64,000 bases of DNA from Planctomycetota bacterium. GTDB taxonomy: Bacteria > Planctomycetota > Phycisphaerae > WQYP01. A program made the translations under genes and the position numbers. Below the pieces are notes generated by a model. The model was not told the DNA's origin and ran no database searches. It saw only the letters and a list, made by a program, of their open reading frames with translations. Within the stretch, counting starts at the first letter, position 1. The number at the start of each line of letters is the position of its first letter. Below are positions 1,735 through 37,703 of the stretch, piece after piece. Where the stretch lies: positions 9,497-73,496 of the forward strand of contig JAJYFE010000001.1 in the NCBI GenBank assembly GCA_021785435.1. The letters are read 5' to 3'.

Positions 1735-2430
1735 TCACGCGGATTTTATTTTACCGTCACACAGACAAACCACACGGTCGGCCAGGGCGGCCACCGTCGG
1801 CTCGTGGGTGACCAGCAGAATACTTTGGCGGCGCTGGCGATGCAGGCGGGTAATCACCTCCAGGATGCCGCGCCCGGTGGGAGGGTCCAGGTTGCCGGTG
1901 GGTTCGTCGGCCAGGACCAGGGCGGGATCGTTAATCAGGGCGCGGGCGATGGCCACGCGCTGGCGTTCGCCGCCGGAAAGTTCCGCGGGGCGATGTTGAA
2001 GGCGTTGGCCTAGCCCCAGATCCGCCAGCAACTCCAAGGCCCGTTTCTGCCGTGGCCGGGAAGGGACCAAAGCCCGCCACCACGGCGCCGCGACCATGGC
2101 CGGCAGCAGAACGTTTTCCAGCACATTCAACTCCGGCAGCAGGTGGTAGAGTTGAAACACAAAGCCGAAGGCCTGGTTGCGCAGGCGATGCCGCCGACTG
2201 CGGGAAAGCCGGCAGATATTCTGCCCGCGGAAGCTGGTGCACCCGCCATCGGCATGATCCAAGGCCCCGGCGATATGCAGCAGCGTGCTCTTGCCGGAGC
2301 CGGAGGCGCCCATCAACGCCACAAATTCGCCTTCGCGCACGGCCAGGCTCGCGCCGGTGAGCACGGGGATCGTCGCCGGGCCGAGTCGGAAGGTTTTGTG
2401 AAGCGCAATAAGTTCGAGCAGGTTGTCCAT
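1735..2430 (-). CDS. ABC transporter ATP-binding protein (LolD/FtsE/MacB-type)
   Basis: Walker A GASGSGKST, ABC signature [15 protein letters not shown], Walker B LVLADEPT. Confidence 0.85.
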   Translation of the reverse strand: MDNLLELIALHKTFRLGPATIPVLTGASLAVREGEFVALMGASGSGKSTLLHIAGALDHADGGCTSFRGQNICRLSRSRRHRLRNQAFGFVFQLYHLLPELNVLENVLLPAMVAAPWWRALVPSRPRQKRALELLADLGLGQRLQHRPAELSGGERQRVAIARALINDPALVLADEPTGNLDPPTGRGILEVITRLHRQRRQSILLVTHEPTVAALADRVVCLCDGKIKSA

Positions 2431-4355
2431 TATCGTTCGTGCGGGTCTTCCAGGTAGGTGTAGCCCTGCAGGCCGGATTCATAGAACCGCAGCAGCAGGG
2501 CGGATTCTTCCACGGAGATCGTTTTTTCGCGGACGGCGCGCTCCACGTCGCGGCGCATCCGGGCCAGGAGCTCTTCGCCGTTGAATTGCACGTATTGCAG
2601 CACCTCGCGGACCGTGTCGCCGCGGACCACTTCTTCGACATGGATTTCGCCGGTTTCGTCCATGTGCACGTGGACGGCATTGGTGTCGCCGAGAAGATTG
2701 TGCAGATCGCCCAGGATTTCCTGGTAAGCCCCCACCAGGAAGGCGCCCAGGAAATAATCACCGCCGGTGTATTCATGCAATTCGAGGGTTTTTTTCACGT
2801 CGTGCAAATCAATGAAGTAGTCGACTTTGCCGTCGCTGTCACAAGTAATGTCGGCGAGGATGCCGCGGCGCAGCGGGGCCTCATTGAGGCGGTGGATGGG
2901 CAGGATGGGGAAAAGCTGGCGGATGGCCCAGCTGTCGGGCATGGACTGAAAAAGAGAGAAGTTGCAGAAATAGGTGTCGCAGAGATGGGCCTCCAGGGCC
3001 TCGAAATCTTCGCTGACATCCCGGGTTTCCCGGAGCATCTTGAGAATTTTGGCGCACACGCCCCAGAACAGTTTTTCCGCATAGCTGCGCAGCTCCAGGC
3101 TTAAGTAACCGAGATTAAACAGGTTCAACGCCTCATCCCGCTGCTGCATGGCGTCGTGGTAAATTTCCGCGTAATTTTTCTTGCTTACATCCCGGTGTGC
3201 CTCGAAGAGATCCTTGACCGGCTGGGGAACTTCCTCGCCGGCGGGCAACTCCGGCGGCACGTCGAAACTGTCAAAACCGCTGACCCCCAGCACGTTGAAA
3301 ACCAACAGGCTGTGATAAGCCACCATGGCCCGACCGCTCTCGGTGATGATCGTCGGAGGGGGTACCGCGCATTCGTCGCAAACGGTTTTAATGCGAAAGA
3401 TCACATCCCCGGCGTACTCGGCCAGGGTGTAATTGACGGAAGATTCAAAGTTGGTCTGGCTGCCGTCATAATCCACGCCCAGTCCGCCGCCGACATCGAT
3501 ATATTTCATTCCGGCCCCGGCGCGGGTCAGTTCGGCGTAGATGCGGGCGGCCTCGTTGAGGGCGTTCTTGATGGTGCGAATATTGGTGATCTGGCTGCCC
3601 AGGTGGAAATGCAGCAGCTGCAGACAATCCGCCATGTTCCGCTGTTTGAGATAATCGAGCGCCTGGAGGATTTCCGCGACGAACAGGCCAAACTTGCTTT
3701 TCGCCCCGCCGGAAGACTCCCAGCGCCCGCTGCCGCGCGCCGCGAGCTTGACGCGCACGCCCAGGCGGGGGCGCACGGAATGCTTTTCGCCGTATTTGGT
3801 CAGCAGTTCCAGCTCCGTGAATTTTTCCACCACGGGGATGACGGTCTTGCCGAGTTTCTGGGCCAGCACCACCGTTTCGATGAATTCATCGTCTTTAAAG
3901 CCGTTGCAGATAATGGGTGTGTCGCGGCCGTTGGTCAGGGCCAGCACGACGAGCAGCTCCGGCTTGCTGCCCGCTTCCAGGCCCCAGCCGTAGGATTGGC
4001 CGGCCTGCAGGATTTCCTCCACCACGTGGCGCTGCTGATTGACCTTGATGGGGTAGACGCAGATGTGGCGGCCCGGGTAGCCATTTTCCTGGATGGCCGC
4101 CTGAAAGGCGCTGTGGATCTCCGCCAGGCGGTGTTTCAGAATGTCGCTGAAACGCAGCAACGTGGGCAGTTGGATGCCGCGGAGGATCAGATCATCGATG
4201 AGTTTTTTCAGATCGATGGCCCGGGCGGGGTTTTTGTCCGGGTGCACCGCGACATGCCCGGCCGCGTTAATGGAAAAATAACCTTTACCCCATTTCTGGA
4301 TGTGATACAGCTCGGCGGAATCCTGCACCGTCCAGGGTTTGAGCATGTCCATGTC
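2430..4355 (-). CDS. speA: Biosynthetic arginine decarboxylase SpeA. The start is taken at MDMLKPWTV; the ORF extends upstream to 4439 only by reading through the repeat element
   Basis: Full-length similarity to PLP-dependent biosynthetic ADC (about 640 aa). The upstream extension translates a (GCTCCT)n repeat as SRSRSRS/EQEQ. Confidence 0.85.
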   Translation of the reverse strand, partial: DMDMLKPWTVQDSAELYHIQKWGKGYFSINAAGHVAVHPDKNPARAIDLKKLIDDLILRGIQLPTLLRFSDILKHRLAEIHSAFQAAIQENGYPGRHICVYPIKVNQQRHVVEEILQAGQSYGWGLEAGSKPELLVVLALTNGRDTPIICNGFKDDEFIETVVLAQKLGKTVIPVVEKFTELELLTKYGEKHSVRPRLGVRVKLAARGSGRWESSGGAKSKFGLFVAEILQALDYLKQRNMADCLQLLHFHLGSQITNIRTIKNALNEAARIYAELTRAGAGMKYIDVGGGLGVDYDGSQTNFESSVNYTLAEYAGDVIFRIKTVCDECAVPPPTIITESGRAMVAYHSLLVFNVLGVSGFDSFDVPPELPAGEEVPQPVKDLFEAHRDVSKKNYAEIYHDAMQQRDEALNLFNLGYLSLELRSYAEKLFWGVCAKILKMLRETRDVSEDFEALEAHLCDTYFCNFSLFQSMPDSWAIRQLFPILPIHRLNEAPLRRGILADITCDSDGKVDYFIDLHDVKKTLELHEYTGGDYFLGAFLVGAYQEILGDLHNLLGDTNAVHVHMDETGEIHVEEVVRGDTVREVLQYVQFNGEELLARMRRDVERAVREKTISVEESALLLRFYESGLQGYTYLEDPHER

Positions 4356-4364
4356 GCCTTGCTC

Positions 4365-5440
4365 CTGCTCCTCACTTCTCAACTTCTCACTCCTGCTCCT
4401 GCTCCTGCTCCCGCTCCTGATCGAAAGGCCCTCGATCAAGAGCAGGAGCAGGAGCAGGAGCAGGAAAGATTACGCTCCGGAAACGCCGCTGCCATATTCG
4501 CGGCCGGAATTCCGCTTGATCAGCCCCATGAGCATACGCACGATTCGTTGCAGCCGTTCCATGTCGCCTCGCTCCCGCTGCTCACCCCCGCTCCTACTCC
4601 TGCTCCTGCTCCCGCTCCTGATCGAAAGGCCCTCGATCAAGAGCACGAGCAGGAGCACGAGCAGGAGCAGGAAAGATTACGCTCCGGAAACGCCGCCGCC
4701 ATATTCGCGGCCGGAATTCCGCTTGATCAGGCCCATGAGCATACACACGATTCATTGCAGCCGTTCCATGTCGCCTCGCTCCCGCTGCTCACCCCCACTC
4801 CCGCTCCTACTCCTACTCCTGCTCCTGATCGAAAGGCCCTCGATCAAGAGCAGGAGCATGAGCAGGAGCAGGAATGATTACGCTCCGGAAACGCCGCTGC
4901 CATATTCGCGGCCGGAATTCCGCTTGATCAGCCCCATGAGCATACGCACGATTCGTTGCAGCCGTTCCTTGCCGGGGTGGATCCGCTCTCGTGCCAGCCT
5001 CCTCCGGGAAACGAGAACGTCCAGGCCGGCGGCGCACTCGAGCGCGGAGCCGCGGGCAATGTCCAAGAATCGGCAGCGATCCTTGGGAGCATATTTGCCG
5101 TTGCCCTCGGCGATGTTCAGTAAGATCGAGCTTGACGCCCGATCCAACTGCTCTTTCACCTCGCCCCAGCGCACGCCGGCTTCCGTGAGTTCGGACAGCC
5201 AGGCGACGAACGCCAGGGCTTCTTGGTAAACGTCCAGCTTCTCGTGATCAAACCAGCACTTTTCGGGCGAACTCATCAGGCCTGACCCTTCGCCTTGCTC
5301 CTGCTCCTGACTTCTCACTCCTGCTCCTGCTCCTGATCCTGCTCGAAAGGCCCTCGATCAAGAGCAGGAGCACGAGCACGAGCAGGAAAGATTACGCTCC
5401 GGAAACGCCGCTGCCATATTCGCGGCCGGAATTCCGCTTA
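4365..5440. repeat. Tandem array of four roughly 205-bp units. Each unit is a hairpin with a roughly 23-bp stem (CTCCTGCTCCTGCTCCTGATCGA-AAGGCCCT-TCGATCAAGAGCAGGAGCAGGAG), flanked by (GCTCCT)n, followed by a copy of the last roughly 100 bp of the four-helix-bundle gene
   Basis: Hairpins centred near 4425, 4630, 4838 and 5345. The 3'-end segment GATTACGCTCCGGAAACGCCGCTGCCATATTCGCGGCCGGAATTCCGCTT occurs at about 4470, 4675, 4875 (the real gene end) and 5390. Confidence 0.85.
4878..5276 (-). CDS. Four-helix-bundle protein of the 23S rRNA intervening-sequence protein family (PF05635/TIGR02436; Avd-like fold)
   Basis: Motif FDHEKLDVYQEALAFVAWL...LLNIAEGNGK...FLDIARGSALECAAGLDVL is typical of the family. 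Start MSSPEKCWF; the ORF extends to 5318 through the repeat. Confidence 0.7.
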   Translation of the reverse strand: MSSPEKCWFDHEKLDVYQEALAFVAWLSELTEAGVRWGEVKEQLDRASSSILLNIAEGNGKYAPKDRCRFLDIARGSALECAAGLDVLVSRRRLARERIHPGKERLQRIVRMLMGLIKRNSGREYGSGVSGA

Positions 5441-7066
5441 AGCCCCGCCCGCCGCGGCGGCGCCAGCAAGTGCCGGCAGAATGAACGTTTTGACCACTTC
5501 AATGCCCGAATCCCCGCGCAAGGCCGCCAGGCATTCCGGCGGGGGCACGGTATCGAGTTTGAGCAGCATCAGGGCCTTGTCGCCCTTGCGGCTGATGGTC
5601 ATGTCCGCGATATTGATGTTCCACCGGCCAAAGGTGGCGCCGACGAAACCGATCACGCCCGGCCGATCCTTATTGACCACGAGGGTCATGGGACCGGCGG
5701 GCACCATGTCCATCCAGTAGCCCTTGAGCGCCAGCACCCGGGGCAGATTATCCGCGAAAACCGTCCCGATCATGGCGTGCCGGGTGCCGTTTTCCGTGAT
5801 TTCCAGTTCCAAGCCGTGTTGCAAGGCCCGCTGCTGCGCCTGGCCCATGGTTTCGTGGCCCAGGGCGATGCCCCGCTGTTCGGCCAAATGCAGCACATTG
5901 ACCAGGTTGGGAGTTTCGGCGATGTGCCCCCGCAGCAGTTCCATGACCGCCAGCCGCTGCAAGGTCGGCGCGATGCGGCGTGGTAGTTCACCGTTGGTGC
6001 GCAGGGTCACCGCAGCGAAGCCTTTTTCCACGATCGCCCCCAACATCACGCCCATGCGCCGAGCCAGATCTGCGTACGCCTTTTCCGGTTCGGACAAATT
6101 CAGGTCGATGCCGCCGGCATTCACGGCGCCGGCAATGCCCTGGCCGCGAAGGTAGAGCAGCAGTTCCTGTACGGCGTCCCGGGCCACAGCCTGCTGGGCC
6201 TCGGCGGTGCTGGCGCCCAGGTGCGGGGTCAGTAAAACCTTCGAGCCCAGGGCGAAGAGGGGGTTGGTCTTGGCCGGTGGCTCGCTGGCATAAACATCCA
6301 GGGCGGCGCCGGCGACGTGCCCGGATTCAATGGCCGCGGCCAGCGCGGTTTCATCAATCACGCCGCCCCGGGCGCAGTTGATCAGGCGCACGCCCGGGCG
6401 GCAGCGGCGCAGGCGGGCCGCGTCCAGCAGGCCGCGGGTTTCGCCGCCCGGCACATGCACGGTGATGAAGTCGCATTGGGGCAACAGGGCGTCCAGGTCT
6501 TTCACCAGGGGAACCTGGCCATCCAGGCCGGTCTCGGCGAAAAAGAACGGATCGTAGGCCAGCACTTTCATCTCCAGCCCCAGCGCCCGTTTGGCGACGG
6601 CGCGGCCAATGCGGCCGAAGCCGATGACGCCCAGCGTTTTTCCCGCCAATTGGGCGCCGAGAAAGCGCCCCCGCTCCCATTGCCCGCCGCGGACATGGGC
6701 GTCGGCGGCGGCCAACTGCCGGGCCAGACCCAGCATCAGGGCCAGGGCATGTTCGGCGGTGGTGATGGTGTTGGCGTCGGGCGTGTTCATTACCAGCACC
6801 CCGGCGCGGGTGGCGGCCTCCACGTCCACGTTATCGACGCCCACCCCGGCCCGGGCGATGGCCTTGAGCCGCCCCGGTTGGGCCAGTTCCGCCGCGGTGA
6901 TTTTCACCCCGCTGCGGATCAACACGCCGTCATATTTGCCGATTTCCCGCGCCAGTTCGCCGGCCTGCCACCGCGGATGATCGGTGGCTTCGACGTCCGG
7001 CTGCTGGCGCAGCAGCGCCAGTCCTTCCGGGGCCAGTTTATCCGCGGCCAGAATTTTAAACATCAA
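5438..7066 (-). CDS. serA: D-3-phosphoglycerate dehydrogenase (long form with a C-terminal ACT domain)
   Basis: 2-hydroxyacid dehydrogenase NAD-binding GxGxxG (GVIGFGRIGRAVA), catalytic-domain similarity, roughly 540 aa length with ASB/ACT C-terminus. Confidence 0.9.
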   Translation of the reverse strand: MMFKILAADKLAPEGLALLRQQPDVEATDHPRWQAGELAREIGKYDGVLIRSGVKITAAELAQPGRLKAIARAGVGVDNVDVEAATRAGVLVMNTPDANTITTAEHALALMLGLARQLAAADAHVRGGQWERGRFLGAQLAGKTLGVIGFGRIGRAVAKRALGLEMKVLAYDPFFFAETGLDGQVPLVKDLDALLPQCDFITVHVPGGETRGLLDAARLRRCRPGVRLINCARGGVIDETALAAAIESGHVAGAALDVYASEPPAKTNPLFALGSKVLLTPHLGASTAEAQQAVARDAVQELLLYLRGQGIAGAVNAGGIDLNLSEPEKAYADLARRMGVMLGAIVEKGFAAVTLRTNGELPRRIAPTLQRLAVMELLRGHIAETPNLVNVLHLAEQRGIALGHETMGQAQQRALQHGLELEITENGTRHAMIGTVFADNLPRVLALKGYWMDMVPAGPMTLVVNKDRPGVIGFVGATFGRWNINIADMTISRKGDKALMLLKLDTVPPPECLAALRGDSGIEVVKTFILPALAGAAAAGGA

Positions 7067-7896: not shown

Positions 7897-8397
7897 TCAT
7901 TCTGCGTTCGCACTTCGTGGCGCAAAATTCAGGTTAGGCTCGACCGGCGGCTGGCCCCTCCAGTTGTTCCACGTCGGCGAGGTCCTTGGCCCGGTCGGCG
8001 CAACGCTGGTTGGCCAGCAAATCTTCGCGGTGGATGATGCTAAGCTCCACCCGTCAAGCATTTCCCGGCACCGCCGGGCGAAGCCGGTCTGGAATTCCAG
8101 TCCACTCGCGCCGGTGAGAAGCTCGATCCGCAAGGGCGCAACGCCCATGCGAATAACCTGACGCGGCTTTAGGAACAATTCGGGCGAAGCGCCGGCGCGG
8201 CCCAAGCCAAATTGTTCCAGCGGGGCCATCACCCGTCGGGCGTTCCCAGGATCGACCTGGATCCAGACGTCCAGATCCGCGGTGGTGCGGGGGTAGCCGT
8301 GGTACGCGACGGCATAGCCACCCGTGAGCAGATATTTAGCTTCCGAGCGGTTCAGGGTCTGTAAGAATTCTTTGAAATCGGGTGGTAACGAGATCAT
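7897..8397 (-). CDS. Putative nucleotidyltransferase-fold protein (minimal NTase/AbiEii-like motif)
   Basis: LLTGGYAVAYHGYPRTTADLDVWI fits the hG[GS]-x9-13-DhD nucleotidyltransferase signature. Start MISLPPDF; family assignment is tentative. Confidence 0.45.
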   Translation of the reverse strand: MISLPPDFKEFLQTLNRSEAKYLLTGGYAVAYHGYPRTTADLDVWIQVDPGNARRVMAPLEQFGLGRAGASPELFLKPRQVIRMGVAPLRIELLTGASGLEFQTGFARRCREMLDGWSLASSTAKICWPTSVAPTGPRTSPTWNNWRGQPPVEPNLNFAPRSANAE

Positions 8398-8583
8398 AAT
8401 TGTAAGCCACCTGGCGCATAATTTCCAAGGCTTCCAGCCGCTCCCGAGGGGGCCGACGGCGCCACCCGGCGCGGTCTTCGGCGTCCACAAGGTCAAGCGG
8501 GGCCACCCTCAGGGTGGTGCGTTCCAGGCGCGGCAGACGCTCCGGAATCCATGGTTTTCCTGATTTTTCCGACCGTCTATTCA
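8336..8583 (-). CDS. Small ORF (82 aa) overlapping the NTase-like gene out of frame; possible cognate partner (TA-like arrangement)
   Basis: ATG at 8583. The 62-bp out-of-frame overlap with the downstream gene is typical of coupled TA pairs; no recognisable domain. Confidence 0.3.
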
Positions 8584-8591
8584 TGGGCGTA

Positions 8592-9959
8592 TTATAACCG
8601 ATCGGCCGGTTTAACCACGCCCGGCCGGTCACGCGCCTCCGGGCTGGGCGTGGCCGGATTTTGTGGCGGCGGGTCTGGTAAAATGGGCAGGCCGCGGACG
8701 GCGGGAGCGGCGGGAGATTCCGCGCGCGGGGGAACCGGCCAGACGCAGCGCACGGTGGTGCCGACGCCGGGCGTGCTTTCCAGTTCCACCACTCCGCCCA
8801 ATGCGGCCACGGCATGTTTGACGATGGCCAGGCCCAGCCCCGTTCCGCGGTCCGCGCCGCCGCGGCTGCGATTGACCGTGTAGAAGCGTTCGAATACCCG
8901 GCCGATATCCTCCGGGGGGATGCCGCAGCCGGTGTCCCGCACCTGCAGCACCGTGGCCGTCCCCCGCCGCGACCAGCGCACCTCCACCCAGCCGGACGAG
9001 GTGAATTTAAGGCTGTTATCCAACAGGTTTTTAAGAATCAGGATGATCAGGCGCTCGTCGGCGGTAATGGTTTTGACGTCCAGGGCGCTGGGAAAGCGCA
9101 GCTCGAGATGCTTTTCCTGGGCGCTGGCGCCGAACAGGCCCAGCATGGCGTCGCGCAGTTCGGCCAGATCGATCGGCTCCAGGTGCAGGATGGCGCGGGA
9201 GTCTTCGGTGCGCGACAAATCTAGCAGATCCTGCACCAGCAGCTGCAGCCGCCGTACATGCCCGCCGATGATCCCCAGGCAGCGTTCCGCGACGGCCCGG
9301 TCGTGCAGACCGCTGCTGCGCATGGTTTCCACCGCGGCGCGAATACTGGCCAAGGGGGTGCGCAATTCGTGGCTGGCGTTGGCGGCGAAATCGGCCTTGA
9401 TCTGCATACTTTGCAGCAACTCCGTCTGGTCTTCCATCAGCAGCAGAATGCCCAGAAACACCTCCGGCGGCGCCACGCAGGGGAAGCGGGTCGCGGATGT
9501 TCCGCGCCTGGCGCGGGCGGCGCCGCGGGGCGCCGGCACGCCGGGCCGGGGGCGGGCCCAAAATTCGGCCGCTTCTGCGGCAGGGCGCACCGGCGCCACG
9601 GACAGCTGGACCATACGGGGATGGCCGGCGACGGAAAGGCGGATCTGCCGCCGCGGCGGAACCACCCCGCGGCGCGCCGCCGCCAACATTTCCGCTACGG
9701 CCGGCTGGGCCAGAAAGTCGGCCCACCCCGCGGCCCCTGCGGCGAGCAGTTCGCTGGCGCGGGCGTTGGCCAGGGCCACCCGCCCCGCTGCATCCAGAAT
9801 CAGCAGCGGGTGCTCCAGGTGCTCCAACAACGTGCGAAAGGAACTGGCTTGTAAAAGCAGTTGGGGACTCCGCGGTGTTGCGGATAAGCCCAGCGCCGCC
9901 AGCAGGCGGGTGATCGGTCCGTGAATCCAGGTTGGCCAACGCTGATCCATAATTTCCAT
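8592..9959 (-). CDS. Sensor histidine kinase (PAS-like N-terminus, HisKA, HATPase_c); orphan, with no adjacent response regulator
   Basis: H-box ASHELRTPL, N-box LLDNSLKFT, G-boxes DTGCGIP and GTGLGLAIVK. Confidence 0.85.
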   Translation of the reverse strand: MEIMDQRWPTWIHGPITRLLAALGLSATPRSPQLLLQASSFRTLLEHLEHPLLILDAAGRVALANARASELLAAGAAGWADFLAQPAVAEMLAAARRGVVPPRRQIRLSVAGHPRMVQLSVAPVRPAAEAAEFWARPRPGVPAPRGAARARRGTSATRFPCVAPPEVFLGILLLMEDQTELLQSMQIKADFAANASHELRTPLASIRAAVETMRSSGLHDRAVAERCLGIIGGHVRRLQLLVQDLLDLSRTEDSRAILHLEPIDLAELRDAMLGLFGASAQEKHLELRFPSALDVKTITADERLIILILKNLLDNSLKFTSSGWVEVRWSRRGTATVLQVRDTGCGIPPEDIGRVFERFYTVNRSRGGADRGTGLGLAIVKHAVAALGGVVELESTPGVGTTVRCVWPVPPRAESPAAPAVRGLPILPDPPPQNPATPSPEARDRPGVVKPADRL

Positions 9960-14268: not shown

Positions 14269-15441
14269 ATGCACCGCATGGCGACCTTAAGCTATCGAAC
14301 CGCCGGTGAATCCCACGGGCCGGCCCTGCTATGCCTGATGGAGGGCCTACCGGCGGGCGTGCCGTTGAATCTCGATTTCATCAACGGCGAATTGCGGCGG
14401 CGGCAGGGCGGCTATGGCCGCGGCGCCCGCCAGCGGCTGGAATCCGATGCGGTCCAGCTTCTGGCCGGCGTGCGCCGCGGCCGCACCATCGGTTCGCCGG
14501 TGGCGGTCCAAATACTCAACCAGGACAGCCGCCTCGATGCAACCCCCGCGCTGGTAAAACCGCGTCCGGGCCATGCGGATCTGGCGGGGGCGATAAAATG
14601 GCTGACCACCGATTGCCGGGAAACACTGGAACGGGCCAGCGCGCGGGAGACCGCCAGCCGCGTCGCCGCCGGCGCCATCGCCCGATGTCTGCTGGACCAA
14701 TTCGCGGTCACGGTAGTGGGATGGGTGGTGCAGATCGGCACGGTGGCCGCCAACGTCGCACCCGATGCCGCGCCTGAAACGTTGCGTTCTGCCGCCGCAG
14801 CCAGCGAAGTCTACTGCCCGGATCCCGCCGCTTCGGCCGGTATGATCGAGCAGATCCAGGCGGCCAAGGCGCAAGGCGACACGCTCGGTGGTATCGTCGA
14901 AACCCGTGTCTACGGCTGCCCCATCGGTTTGGGCAGCTGTGCCCACTGGGACTGGAAACTGGACAGCCGCATCGCCGGGGCGGTAATGGGCATCCAGGCG
15001 ATCAAAGGCGTTGAGATCGGCCTGGGCTTCCGGATGGCCCAACTCACCGGGTCCCTGGTGCATGATCCGATAATCTACGACGCCGCCCGCCGCGACACGC
15101 CGGCCCTGGGCTTTATGCGCCAAACCAATAACGCCGGCGGATTGGAAGGCGGTATGACCAACGGTCAGCCGGTGGTGGTCCGCGCCGCGATGAAGCCGAT
15201 CAGCACGTTGCTCAAAAAGCCCATGCCCACGGTGGATTTGACCAATCACAGCGCCGCCCAGGCGGCCTATGAGCGTAGCGACGTGTGTGCCGTACCCGCC
15301 GCCGGGGTGGTGGTGGAAAACGTGGTCGCGTTTGAAATTGCCCGGGCCATGGTCGAAAAATTCGGCGGAGATTCCCTGGCGGAAATGCTTGCCAATTACC
15401 GCCATTACCTTTCCGCAGCGCGGCAACTCGGCTCCGGCTGA
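14269..15441 (+). CDS. aroC: Chorismate synthase
   Basis: Conserved N-terminus AGESHGPAL and full-length similarity. The ORF extends upstream to 14047, but ATG 14269 gives a canonical roughly 390-aa protein. Confidence 0.9.
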   Translation: MHRMATLSYRTAGESHGPALLCLMEGLPAGVPLNLDFINGELRRRQGGYGRGARQRLESDAVQLLAGVRRGRTIGSPVAVQILNQDSRLDATPALVKPRPGHADLAGAIKWLTTDCRETLERASARETASRVAAGAIARCLLDQFAVTVVGWVVQIGTVAANVAPDAAPETLRSAAAASEVYCPDPAASAGMIEQIQAAKAQGDTLGGIVETRVYGCPIGLGSCAHWDWKLDSRIAGAVMGIQAIKGVEIGLGFRMAQLTGSLVHDPIIYDAARRDTPALGFMRQTNNAGGLEGGMTNGQPVVVRAAMKPISTLLKKPMPTVDLTNHSAAQAAYERSDVCAVPAAGVVVENVVAFEIARAMVEKFGGDSLAEMLANYRHYLSAARQLGSG

Positions 15442-34393: not shown

Positions 34394-34511
34394 CCGCCGC
34401 TCCGCATCCCGGGGAAACGATGCATTGTAACGCCCGCGCTCCGAGGAGCAACGCGGCGGTTGCGGTAGTGCCCCCTAATCCCGCGGCGCAGTTCCCTGGG
34501 GCTGTGACAAG

Positions 34512-34565
34512 TTGTTCCTGGTTCCCGCTCTTGCTCCCGCTCCCGCCCTTGATTGAGGGCTTTCG
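34512..34565. repeat. Fifth, diverged copy (opposite orientation) of the long-stem hairpin element, about 120 bp upstream of the metG start
   Basis: The reverse complement reads CTCCTGATCGAAAGCCCTCAATCAAGGGCGGGAGCGGGAGCAAGAGC, matching CTCCTGATCGAAAGGCCCTCGATCAAGAGCAGGAGCAGGAGC. Confidence 0.7.
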
Positions 34566-35146
34566 ATCAGGAGCATGACCGGCAGCGCGAGCAAGAACGG
34601 CGATGATGCCATCGCTCCCGTTTAGCGGTCAGTCCCGATCCGCGGATCGGGACTGGATTTTCAGGGCAGTTCCTCATGCCCCTACGGAGCACCTGCAGAG
34701 CATGAAAATCGGTCCAATCCGGTGCCCGGCGGTCCCGACACATCGGGATAGCCGGTGCTGTTGAGTCAGGAGACAAAATCCCGATGCGGCAGGAGACGCC
34801 CATCGGGTTCCCTATCGCCGCTGCTGATTCATCACCGCGCCACGGCGCCACGACGGACGGACGATTTACTCCCGATAGCCCCGGTGGACACACTCCAATG
34901 TGCTGTGTTTTTATGTAGTAGGCACACTCCGATGTGCCGTAGGCCTCGCCTTCCCGCCGGTCCAAACGGGCTTGTGGCCCGACGGCATGTAGGATCATGC
35001 CTGCTACGTTGCGCCGTTGGCATCCCGCTTCGCGTCGTCGCGGCTTTGCGTGACAGCGTCCGCGATCCCATGATTCATTCCGCGTTCCTACTAAGAAAAA
35101 TCGCCACGCCCGCCCCGAAAGCCGCGGGCAAGGGGGCGGAGCGCGG

Positions 35147-36039: not shown

Positions 36040-36500
36040 CCGCATTTGCGACGGCCACTTGACACTTGACATGCGGCTCGCTAGGATGTATTGTTGTTAT
36101 CGTTAACAGACCAATAGGTGACGTTAACATATAGAGTGTGGCCGGTCCTGGAAACGGCGGCCTAAGAGGCTCTTGATCATGCCGGTGACGCTTCGCGACA
36201 TTGCGGATAAAGTCGGGGGCTGCATGATGATGGTGTCGCGGTACGGCGACACCGCCCGATTTGCGACGGGATTGGAACCGGCACTTAACACTTGACATAC
36301 GGCTCGCTAAGATGTATTGTTGTTATCGTTAACAGACCAATAGGTGACGTTAACATAGAGAATGTGGCCAGTCCCGGAAACGGCGGCCTAAGAGGCTCTT
36401 AATCATGCCGGTGACGCTTCGCGACATTGCGGATAAAGTCGGGGTCTCCATGATGACGGTGTCGCGCTCCCTGAACGGTGAAGCGCCGTCGATGGTTTCG
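36040..36500 (+). repeat. Tandem direct duplication (roughly 229 bp, two copies) covering the promoter, operator, RBS and first roughly 20 codons of the LacI-family regulator
   Basis: CACTTGACA(T/C)(G/A)CGGCTCGCTA(G/A)GATGTATTGTTGTTATCGTTAACAGACCAATAGGTGACGTTAACAT...ATGCCGGTGACGCTTCGCGACATTGCGGATAAAGTCGGGG occurs at about 36055 and about 36284. Confidence 0.85.
36292..36334 (+). promoter_or_regulatory. Sigma70-like promoter (TTGACA-17-TATTGT) with an overlapping LacI-type palindromic operator TGTTATCGTTAACA
   Basis: -35 at 36292-36297, -10 at 36315-36320, operator at 36321-36334; a duplicate is at 36066-36107. Confidence 0.5.
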
Positions 36501-37703
36501 CCCGCCTTGAGGCAGCGCATCCGGAAGGCGGCGGAACAATTAGGCTACCATCCGAATGTCAACGCCCGGGCGTTGGCCCGCAACCAATCGATGCTGATCG
36601 GCGTGCTTTATAACGGCGTCAATTTCCTTCAGAGCATGCAATTTCTGGCCGGTTTGCAGGAGGTATGCCTCGCCCGCGATTACGCCCCGCTTTTCTTAAG
36701 CCATCAGAATGCCGCCATGGAGCGGGCCAATCTGCGCCTGTGCCTGCGGCGCAAGGTCGATGCGCTGATCGTCAACCCGTGGGTGGAAAACGAGGATCCT
36801 GACCCATCGCGAATGGGCCGGGACTTCCAGCCGTCGGCATCACCCTACCGGAAAATCGTAAAGTCCGGCTTGCCGATGACCGAGGTTTTTGGACGGCGGG
36901 TTCCCGGGGTTTGCTCCGTGCGCTACGACCACCTTGCGGAGGGCAAGCTGGCCGCCAGGCATTTGATTGAGCACGGCCACCGGCGAATTGTGCTGTTCAC
37001 CCACGCCTGGTACCGGGCCGTGGAAAAAATACCGGGCTTGTGTTTTGACGCCTATGAACAATGGCAGGGCTATGCCGCCGAGATGCGCCGCATCGGCGCC
37101 GAGCCGGTCGTCGTGGCGCACCCACTGACCTTGCAGCCAACCATCCGCAGCGATCCGATGGCATTCCACCAAGCCGCCATGGAGTCCGTCCGCGGCGTGT
37201 TCGATCATCCGGCTGCGCCCACCGCGGTCCTGTGCTACTCGGCGTACCAGGCCCTGGCGGTGCTGAAAATAGCGCAGGCTCGCGGGATCCACGTGCCGAC
37301 CGAGCTGTCCCTTGTCTCCGGCAACGACTTTCCATTCGCCTGGCCTGACGGCCAGCGTCTCACCTGCATTGTCCGGGATCCGACGGAGGCTGGGCGCGTT
37401 GCGGCGAAAACGGTGTTCGCCCAACTGGACACCGGCACCGCGACAGACGCTGCCATCGCGCCGACCCTTCAGCCGGGTGAAACAGTCGCGGACCTAAAAG
37501 CTCAGGCGGTGAAGACGGCACCGCGCGGTTACGGCAAGACTATAACCGGTCAGAGAGTAATCCCCATGCAGACCGATGGCCGGCAGTTTAGTCGCCCGCG
37601 GCGACCCGTGGCGAACGCGATCCGCCGACGCGGTAAACAAGATGGACCGCCCAGGCGCCAAGAACGCTGGGATCAAGCTTTGGTAATGTCAGGAAGCGTC
37701 TGA
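36405..37703 (+). CDS. LacI-family transcriptional regulator (about 80-aa C-terminal tail beyond the usual length, containing a dispersed-repeat motif)
   Basis: N-terminal HTH LRDIADKVGVSMMTVSRSLNG and periplasmic-binding-fold core. No stop until 37703, although the family is usually about 340 aa. Confidence 0.75.
   Translation: MPVTLRDIADKVGVSMMTVSRSLNGEAPSMVSPALRQRIRKAAEQLGYHPNVNARALARNQSMLIGVLYNGVNFLQSMQFLAGLQEVCLARDYAPLFLSHQNAAMERANLRLCLRRKVDALIVNPWVENEDPDPSRMGRDFQPSASPYRKIVKSGLPMTEVFGRRVPGVCSVRYDHLAEGKLAARHLIEHGHRRIVLFTHAWYRAVEKIPGLCFDAYEQWQGYAAEMRRIGAEPVVVAHPLTLQPTIRSDPMAFHQAAMESVRGVFDHPAAPTAVLCYSAYQALAVLKIAQARGIHVPTELSLVSGNDFPFAWPDGQRLTCIVRDPTEAGRVAAKTVFAQLDTGTATDAAIAPTLQPGETVADLKAQAVKTAPRGYGKTITGQRVIPMQTDGRQFSRPRRPVANAIRRRGKQDGPPRRQERWDQALVMSGSV

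Follow-up and report, generated by a model that had tools for sequence, protein, structure and literature searches.

A candidate free-standing gene-in-stem cassette and its probable local duplication between serA and speA of a Planctomycetota bacterium

Introduction

In the genome assembly of a Planctomycetota bacterium of the class Phycisphaerae (GCA_021785435.1, contig JAJYFE010000001.1), the genes serA and speA are separated by a spacer that holds one complete gene for a small four-helix-bundle (4HB) protein of family PF05635, four hairpins, and three partial copies of the 3′ end of that gene, with nothing else between the serA stop and the speA start. We analyzed this spacer within a stretch of 64,000 nucleotides (contig positions 9,497 to 73,496), which we call the window and to which coordinates refer unless a comparison locus (L number) is named. 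A first-pass annotation, made from the letters of the sequence, had described a tandem array of roughly 205-bp units and had likened it to a cassette array or a miniature inverted-repeat transposable element (MITE) rather than to ordinary intergenic DNA. On balance, and with modest conviction, we favor the reading that the locus holds a free-standing gene cassette resembling the intervening sequences (IVS) of 23S rRNA, combined with a recent local duplication. That duplication, which produced the tandem array, is of an ordinary kind, and the interest lies in the cassette family to which the locus leads.

Organization of the serA–speA spacer

The genes serA, 4HB, and speA all lie on one strand (minus). 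Along the coding strand, the order is the serA stop, a 15-codon gene fragment, hairpin U4, a purine tail, the full 4HB open reading frame (ORF), hairpin U3, ghost unit U2, ghost unit U1, and speA (Table 1). As had been described, the array fills the spacer. Its period is 207 bp (Tandem Repeats Finder, 2.9 copies, 91% matches, positions 4388–4968), a fourth, partial unit occupies 5290–5439, and there is no other spacer sequence. Pfam bore out the proposed identities of serA, speA, and the PF05635 ORF, which is complete in one unit only. The remaining three units had been credited with only the last 100 bp or so of the gene, and this is correct in part: the two ghosts each carry approximately 90 nt (codons 104/105–132 plus the stop), while the serA-proximal unit carries 15 codons and the stop. 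The gene fragment of ghost U2 stops early (MERLQ, then a stop), and ghost U1 has an intact in-frame ORF of 30 codons (MERLQRIV...GA, then a stop). The tail of ghost U1 is the original purine tail and holds the AGGAG ribosome-binding motif of speA.

At the other end of the spacer, the serA stop codon TAA (5440–5438) directly touches the first element-derived base, and the serA-proximal partial copy (residues 117–132 by tblastn, 94%) shares the “AA” of that codon. The C-terminus of serA is intact and is four to five residues longer than in relatives; an exact look-up of this serA protein gave no record. The purine arm of hairpin U4 doubles as the 5′ arm of the complete cassette.

The arms also have consequences for gene calling. 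Because the GC-rich arms of the window carry no stop codons, long spurious ORFs run through 3156–4877 and 4339–5229 on the plus strand. False N-terminal extensions of both genes had been anticipated, and public gene callers do mis-start both, with a 146-aa 4HB protein and a 671-aa speA product.

Table 1. Features of the serA–speA spacer and of the solo hairpin elsewhere in the window
Feature	Position	Strand	Description or evidence
serA, D-3-phosphoglycerate dehydrogenase	7066..5438	-	Pfam 2-Hacid_dh, 2-Hacid_dh_C, PGDH_inter, ACT
Partial 4HB 3′ end, serA-proximal	5392..5439	-	Last 15 codons and stop, KRNSGREYGSGVSGA then stop
Hairpin U4	5306..5391	-	Pyrimidine arm (CCTGCT/CGTGCT)n, loop, purine arm (GAGCAG)n
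Tail of the 5′ arm, rich in purines and holding AGGAG motifs, with the 13-nt leader to the 4HB start codon	5277..5305	-	Sequence, unit alignment
Complete 4HB gene, 132 aa, PF05635 / TIGR02436, S23p/Avd family	5276..4878	-	Pfam, TIGR02436, 2GSC
Hairpin U3	4796..4877	-	3′ pyrimidine arm straight after the 4HB stop, abutting the next purine arm; 37-nt arms
Ghost unit U2	4563..4795	-	Divergent purine tail, junction GCGAC ATG GA / ACGG (ATG 4769), 4HB 3′ end, hairpin 4587–4671
Ghost unit U1	4353..4562	-	ATG 4562, copy of 4HB C-terminus to 4470, hairpin 4391–4465, purine tail
speA, biosynthetic arginine decarboxylase	4352..2430	-	Pfam; start ATG GAC ATG CTC AAA
Degenerate solo hairpin (pyrimidine arm, loop, purine arm)	34510..34600	+	About 120 nt upstream of metG

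Hairpins and their folding

The palindrome reported at first pass, approximately 53 bp with a 23-bp stem, is real and longer than was thought. Its arms measure 34–39 nt with 84–94% Watson–Crick complementarity, and they pair over approximately 35–39 bp when G·U pairs are included. The core motif, CTCCTGATCGAAAGGCCCTCGATCAAGAG, occurs in the array three times exactly and once with two mismatches (in U4), against an expectation of zero by chance. Folded as mRNA-sense RNA, the four hairpins reach −54 to −79 kcal/mol, with z scores of −5.5 to −11.3 (U4, minimum free energy −53.6 kcal/mol, z −5.5; U3, −69.3 kcal/mol, z −10.4; U1, −76.4 kcal/mol, z −11.3).

One part of the initial description has to be given up, namely, that the hairpin is a unit in its own right. 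In the window, each apparent hairpin consists of the 3′ (pyrimidine) arm of an element joined directly to the 5′ (purine) arm of the following one, and in most relatives the same two arms pair across the whole ORF. The purine arm 5′ of the window ORF and the pyrimidine arm 3′ of it are 79–90% complementary to one another, and each pairs locally as well. The same succession of hairpin, ORF, hairpin, and hairpin is found at a Gemmataceae locus (L022).

All 12 distinct hairpin variants of the host species are more stable on the mRNA strand (mean −58.8 versus −47.3 kcal/mol), and they form 51 G·U pairs in the sense orientation versus 5 in the antisense. Since the imperfections of the hairpins are thus G·U pairs on the mRNA strand, a role at the RNA level is favored.

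Searching for the hairpin beyond the array, as the first-pass annotation had proposed, turned up a fifth, degenerate copy (Table 1). This solo hairpin is 76–80% identical to the unit by blastn and folds as RNA at −37.3 kcal/mol (z −2.4). It is identical in L157 (GCA_027429575.1), the one further contig compared, which matches the window at 99.9% identity. Beside it, near metG at approximately 34630–34655, lies a perfect hairpin of small size, cagtcccgatccgcggatcgggactg, which is likewise identical in L157.

Empty sites, strain variation, and the origin of the ghost units

Comparison of the serA–speA junction among relatives, another check suggested at the outset, revealed both an empty site and variation in unit copy number between strains. 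In L071–73 and L074–75, whose speA is approximately 80% identical, serA is followed by an ordinary non-repetitive spacer of approximately 215–235 bp and then by speA, with no hexamers, no hairpin, and no 4HB gene. Repeat-derived N-terminal extensions were found in none of 12 relatives at 84% identity or less. The cassette is therefore a species-level insertion into the serA–speA spacer.

The partial unit next to serA is common to all strains of the species (seen in L001, L063, and L064–L066), as is a hairpin on either flank of the 4HB gene, and the hexamer arms vary among strains whose flanking genes are 97–99% identical. The ghosts are present in the window and in L064 and L065, which are independent assemblies with the same junction; L064 comes from the same metagenome-assembled genome (MAG) as L157. 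They are absent from L001, L002, L063, and L067, which have diverged by 1–3% and in which the downstream hairpin leads straight to speA. Assembly collapse was considered as the cause of the ghost-less contigs and is unlikely, given that their arms match no unit of the window and that four independent assemblies agree.

The ghost junction, GGCGACATGGA followed by ACGG, contains an 11-nt identity to the start context of speA, and the first five nucleotides of speA recur at both ghost junctions, fused to 4HB codon 104. Relatives begin their speA proteins with M[DN][ILM]L[KN]xW, and the speA start is therefore native. Derivation of the junction ATG from the 4HB start codon was rejected, as the 11-nt identity is with this native speA start. 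The 4HB ORF reads CAAGGA where speA reads CATGGA. Because the junction contains the first five bases of speA, ghosts U1 and U2 are a strain-specific local tandem duplication of 207 bp, and not insertions or independent cassettes. Specifically, a 207-bp segment running from 4HB codon 104 through the downstream hairpin to base 5 of speA was duplicated at the CA(A/T)GGA microhomology and later amplified to three copies, yielding two ghost units. The near-perfect hexamer arrays and palindromes probably make the locus prone to slippage and duplication.

A family of genes enclosed in hexamer-repeat arms

The 4HB protein matches PF05635 at an E-value of 1.7e-20 (73.6 bits, cut-off 33.8), as well as TIGR02436 and the PDB entry 2GSC (E 1.7e-8). 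Its nearest solved structure is XCC0516 and not Avd, which places it in a different subfamily. More than 7,900 close homologues of about 132 aa, with 70–79% identity, were found, named from Planctomycetota such as Pirellulaceae and Tepidisphaeraceae. Purifying selection on the protein is strong (dN/dS 0.05–0.10, within and between genomes).

On long contigs, the homologues sit in unrelated contexts: one is antisense within a POR operon, and others follow truA or sulfatase genes. Judged against shuffled flanks, inverted repeats enclosing the ORF were found at 32 of approximately 50 loci from genomes and at 46 of 67 from metagenomes, or about two thirds of some 115 loci, the named genomes belonging to Planctomycetota and to some Verrucomicrobiota, Armatimonadota, and Omnitrophica. 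The arms are built of a strict hexamer, G-A-K-K-A-R, in which G1, A2, and A5 are each conserved at 94% or more, and their autocorrelation is 0.66 at lags of 6, 12, 18, and 24. Arms have a median length of 61 nt and 82% complementarity; the 5′ arm ends approximately 13 nt before the start codon, and the 3′ arm begins approximately 6 nt past the stop. A Shine–Dalgarno-like AGGA beside the start codon is sequestered by the innermost base pairs. Pairing is much better between cognate arms than between non-cognate ones (mean score 61 versus 29). The (GAGCAG)n of the window fits the hexamer unit as a GC-rich variant. Other phyla use different hexamers in an equal design, and the arm sequences differ greatly between lineages, to the point that even their polarity flips.

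For example, at L004 the arms, (GATTAA/GATTAG/GAGGAA...)n, are 68 nt long and 94% complementary, with a gap of 4 nt to the ATG and of 1 nt from the stop, and they fold into a stem of approximately 70 bp with the ORF in the loop (z −10). At the same locus (3927–3934), the truA stop TAA lies inside the first GATTAA hexamer, AT-rich arms carrying stops in one frame. At L003 (2752–6474), a cassette stands between TPP_enzyme_C and POR/POR_N, a 2-oxoacid:ferredoxin oxidoreductase pair, on the strand opposite to both.

Discrete copies, decay, and selection

Within single genomes, the repeated unit measures 500–640 bp. Homology among three Gemmataceae paralogs extends from CTAGTGCT to AGCACTAG, beyond which identity is approximately 40%, and these paralogs carry one more inverted repeat, TCGACTGACGGG / CCCGTCAGTCGA, within which the hexamer arms are nested. 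One Gemmataceae MAG has three copies and one Isosphaeraceae MAG at least five; the window has one full cassette and one solo hairpin. Decaying forms were also encountered. One Isosphaeraceae MAG contains a 5′-truncated pseudogene that keeps its 3′ arm (L060, approximately 2950–3240) and a frameshifted copy (L052). In the same MAG, an internal deletion in L058 (3001–3243) has left both arms in place, and at L052 1374–1535 there is an ORF-less miniature composed of an arm, the last eight codons, and an arm. Consequently, the initial comparison with a cassette or MITE-like element holds for the family, which is widespread, bounded by inverted repeats, and represented by several copies, miniatures, and empty sites. 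It does not extend to the three extra units of the window, which are not independent cassettes, two of them being the locally duplicated ghosts.

Selection acts on the arms as well as on the protein. Among paralogs, the arms are 87–93% identical, versus 71–85% at third codon positions and 75–82% in the outer segments. In addition, a cassette lies directly upstream of a conserved gene for a MoaD/ThiS-like protein of approximately 100 aa (MIRVILPQHLRTLA...RFFACEED) in six lineages (L035, L037, L042, L043, L045, and L055, from Gemmataceae, Phycisphaerales, and Tepidisphaeraceae). Because this neighbor is common to six lineages, some insertions are old or site-preferring.

These data bear on two other explanations. 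The first is that the locus is a functionless product of slippage, that is, ordinary intergenic simple-sequence DNA with no identity as an element. The ghosts are a local tandem duplication, the hexamer number varies between strains as in a microsatellite, and the window contains a second tandem duplication of approximately 226 bp, all of which agree with it. Slippage would not account for a gene-plus-arms design at more than 70 independent loci across phyla, for selection on arms and protein, for the lack of hexamers in the spacer of relatives, or for the 51-to-5 G·U asymmetry. We regard this explanation as very improbable for the locus, and it stands only for the two ghosts.

The second is that the cassette moves at the DNA level as a mobile insertion cassette (MIC) or MITE-like element, its arms serving as terminal inverted repeats that a trans-acting transposase or recombinase recognizes, with the 4HB gene as a passenger or helper. 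The abutted-arm hairpins would then mark where tandem or circular intermediates are joined head to tail, as in the minicircles and dimers of insertion sequences; this explanation is compatible with an RNA role. MICs and MITEs share several traits with the cassettes: terminal inverted repeats define their ends, they encode no transposase, and they occur as dispersed copies alongside deletion derivatives and empty sites. MICs, in addition, carry a passenger ORF. The discrete dispersed units whose homology ends abruptly at CTAGTGCT...AGCACTAG, the three to five or more copies per genome, the internally deleted and ORF-less derivatives, the solo hairpin elsewhere in the window, and a serA-proximal unit that looks like a 1.3-unit head-to-tail concatemer are all in keeping with mobility. 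However, no convincing target-site duplication was found at clean loci or in the paralog alignment, with filled and empty pairs too distant to define ends, and no transposase, integrase, or reverse transcriptase (RT) lies within approximately 10 kb of the array. No cognate transposase was identified, a difference from MICs and MITEs. Arm sequence and polarity vary by lineage, unlike the sites of a sequence-specific transposase, and the arms are not conserved between lineages. The copies within genomes are old (dS 0.26–1.6), some insertions are syntenic across families, and the speA bases at the ghost junction mean that the ghosts did not insert. Taken together, we hold movement of this kind to be a serious though unlikely explanation of the locus.

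Comparison with known systems

Membership of the 4HB protein in the Avd family had made an association with repeats attractive, Avd being the accessory protein of diversity-generating retroelements (DGRs), and the first-pass annotation had itself dismissed a DGR. Its dismissal is upheld. Among ORFs of at least 180 aa within approximately 10 kb, we found no RT, and the differences between units are not adenine-specific (A/G 15, C/T 13, C/G 7, A/C 7, G/T 2, A/T 2). The cassette shares with the DGR Avd a homologous pentameric four-helix-bundle fold family (PF05635 / cd16375) and differs from it in having no RT, no pair of template and variable repeats, no variable-region target gene, and no adenine-specific differences. 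An integron-type cassette array was evaluated alongside, since palindromes at the 3′ ends of ORFs are superficially like attC sites. The same neighbor scan gave no IntI integrase, the sole GTTRRRY match lies inside the 4HB ORF, and no attC R-box cores were found at the palindromes. A DGR remnant or variant, or an integron-type array, is thus contradicted by the tests and has a negligible chance of being correct. A clustered regularly interspaced short palindromic repeats (CRISPR) array was also rejected, as its “spacers” would be copies of one gene end and no cas genes are nearby.

In the PADLOC annotation of defense systems, nothing was found. Rfam 15 returned nothing at the gathering threshold in the whole window, including no rRNA, and region 4200–5600 gave only sub-threshold matches to generic miRNA hairpins. 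Our full-text literature search found papers on rRNA-borne IVS and on Avd, and none on free-standing PF05635 cassettes with hexamer-repeat arms.

The closest likeness, which the first-pass annotation had not seen, is to the ORF-bearing IVS of 23S rRNA, as in Leptospira, Coxiella, Xanthomonas, and Brucella. In these, RNase III cuts in the middle of a stem formed by terminal inverted repeats, the loop holds an S23p ORF, and the start codon is preceded by a strain-variable number of short purine-rich repeats, such as the heptamer GACAGAT in Coxiella (PMC4990558). The cassette family likewise has an S23p / PF05635 ORF in the loop of an enclosing stem formed by terminal inverted repeats, and purine-rich tandem repeats just upstream of the start (hexamers here, heptamers in Coxiella) that vary among strains. 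A patchy distribution, decaying copies, and an unexplained spread are further points in common (PMC4990558). There are also clear differences. IVS reside in helix 9, 25, or 45 of 23S rRNA, whereas the window cassette lies between serA and speA and its relatives lie between assorted protein-coding genes. The IVS stem is 28 bp, while cassette arms are approximately 60 nt and consist wholly of period-6 repeats. The Coxiella ORF is decaying, in contrast to the strong purifying selection on the cassette ORF, and the cassette occurs in several copies per genome. Finally, the window arms form local hairpins with neighboring arms and not one stem enclosing the ORF.

A second group to consider comprises the Correia/NEMIS elements of Neisseria and the REP/BIME- and ERIC-type repeats. 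As is proposed for the cassette, these inverted-repeat elements are transcribed together with the genes beside them, and their RNA hairpins either undergo RNase III processing or stabilize neighboring mRNAs. Like the cassette, they have miniature non-autonomous forms and insertion/absence polymorphism. Correia elements have defined TA target duplications. To our knowledge, none of these elements carries an ORF or is built of hexamers, unlike the cassette.

Neighboring genes and other repeats in the window

Genes picked up by the neighbor scan include those for TatC, an ABC ATPase, the speA and serA products, a histidine kinase, a CBM9 protein, an amidohydrolase, pterin and B12 proteins, and an S24-HTH protein; two ORFs (7897–8496 and 14347–15426) had no Pfam match. 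Between tatC and the ABC ATPase gene, a 13-bp repeat (GCCCGGGGCTTCC) forms two short arrays, at 1476–1510 and 1567–1608. The 226-bp tandem duplication mentioned above (36056–36466, 1.8 copies, 94%) is unrelated to the cassette. Within it lie a region resembling a promoter of the TTGACA type, an operator-like palindrome (GTTAAC...GTTAAC), and the first 25 or so codons of a LacI-type regulator (36405..37703).

Discussion

The IVS-like reading that we favor builds on what the sequences show about the anatomy of the locus and the family to which it belongs, on the empty sites of relatives and the polymorphic copy number, on selection acting on both the protein and the arms, and on the bias of G·U pairs in the hairpins toward the mRNA strand. 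It supposes that a single cassette, with its ORF bracketed by inverted G-A-K-K-A-R arms of approximately 60 nt, entered the serA–speA spacer. In relatives, the transcript would fold into a long stem with the whole ORF in its loop. In the host species, a 3′ arm abuts a 5′ arm on each side of the gene, giving a 35–39-bp hairpin per flank. No promoter consensus or intrinsic terminator was found between serA and speA, and co-transcription of serA, 4HB, and speA is therefore plausible. In such a transcript, the stems could be sites of processing or stability for a double-strand-specific enzyme of the RNase III type, and they may either cut the cassette out of the host transcript or insulate it within it, much as the gene-in-stem design does inside 23S rRNA. 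Stems of 35–70 bp and the G·U bias on the mRNA strand are indirect evidence for excision by RNase III. We put this RNA-level role forward tentatively, at slightly short of an even chance. A role of the arms at the DNA level, as terminal repeats for movement, may coexist with it.

Several observations weigh against this reading. The G·U bias is weak across the family (127 versus 95, p 0.04 in a test of G·U versus A·C), and arm mismatches are mostly of the transversion type; in the host species the bias is strong, but the hairpins behind it are related to one another, and strand-biased mutation could account for part of it. Both co-transcription and cleavage by RNase III are steps that we infer. 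Short-read assemblies could in principle collapse repeats, yet the arms of the ghost-less contigs differ from every window unit. As to the history of the locus, the purine tail of the upstream two units differs from the speA-proximal tail by approximately five substitutions and an indel of 9–10 nt, so that extra steps are needed after the first duplication, and no single simple event explains the serA-proximal partial unit.

A further difficulty comes from an independent Planctomycetota MAG with opposite arm polarity (L041, 3001–3684). There, a full cassette is followed by a hairpin and a 100%-identical copy of ORF codons 101–118. This ghost begins at the homologous codon, after the conserved PGKE, without an ATG, and the contig ends inside the copy. 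The probability that this ghost and those of the window begin at the same codon by chance is a few percent, and the coincidence hints at something more systematic than random duplication. No further ghost units were found among 80 metagenome loci searched, the contigs being short.

Another explanation places the arms in the hands of the protein itself. A pentameric, Avd-like 4HB protein may bind its own period-6 arms, as RNA or DNA, and thereby control translation or stability or recruit an enzyme. Across phyla the hexamer sequence changes, yet its strict period and three near-invariant positions persist; the arms are more conserved than synonymous sites; the protein is under strong purifying selection; and the Shine–Dalgarno-like AGGA of the innermost arm pairs lies beside the start codon. 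Avd is a homologue that binds nucleic acid and RT (PMC10053308). However, binding of the 4HB protein to the arms is a hypothesis, approximately one third of the loci have no detectable arms, and slippage alone could produce the periodicity. We consider self-recognition of this kind improbable. A more far-reaching version, to which we also assign little probability, would treat the PF05635 gene and its period-6 arms as one self-recognizing module, in which the pentamer binds the stem and recruits a host or trans-acting enzyme, such as an RT, nuclease, or recombinase, to copy or move the cassette. Free-standing cassettes may in that case be living relatives of both the ORF-bearing IVS of 23S rRNA and the DGR Avd module, and the last 29 or so codons retained beside arms in the window ghosts, L041, and the L052 miniature may mark a cis-acting site.

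The findings matter for annotation. Arms of this type give rise to false ORFs, false N-terminal extensions, and broken short-read assemblies, and at this locus the public calls for both 4HB and speA are wrong. They also matter for an older question, as the origin, mobility, and function of rRNA IVS and S23p proteins have been debated since the early 1990s (PMC4990558). Studies have dealt with just a handful of examples, all of them rRNA-borne; the present locus leads to thousands of free-standing gene-in-stem copies. These form a large comparative data set, with hexamer arms, selection on protein and arms, empty sites, and a series of decaying and miniature forms, and cultivable Planctomycetota hosts are open to tests of processing, protein–arm binding, and mobility. 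The free-standing copies may show where the rRNA-borne gene-in-stem elements came from.

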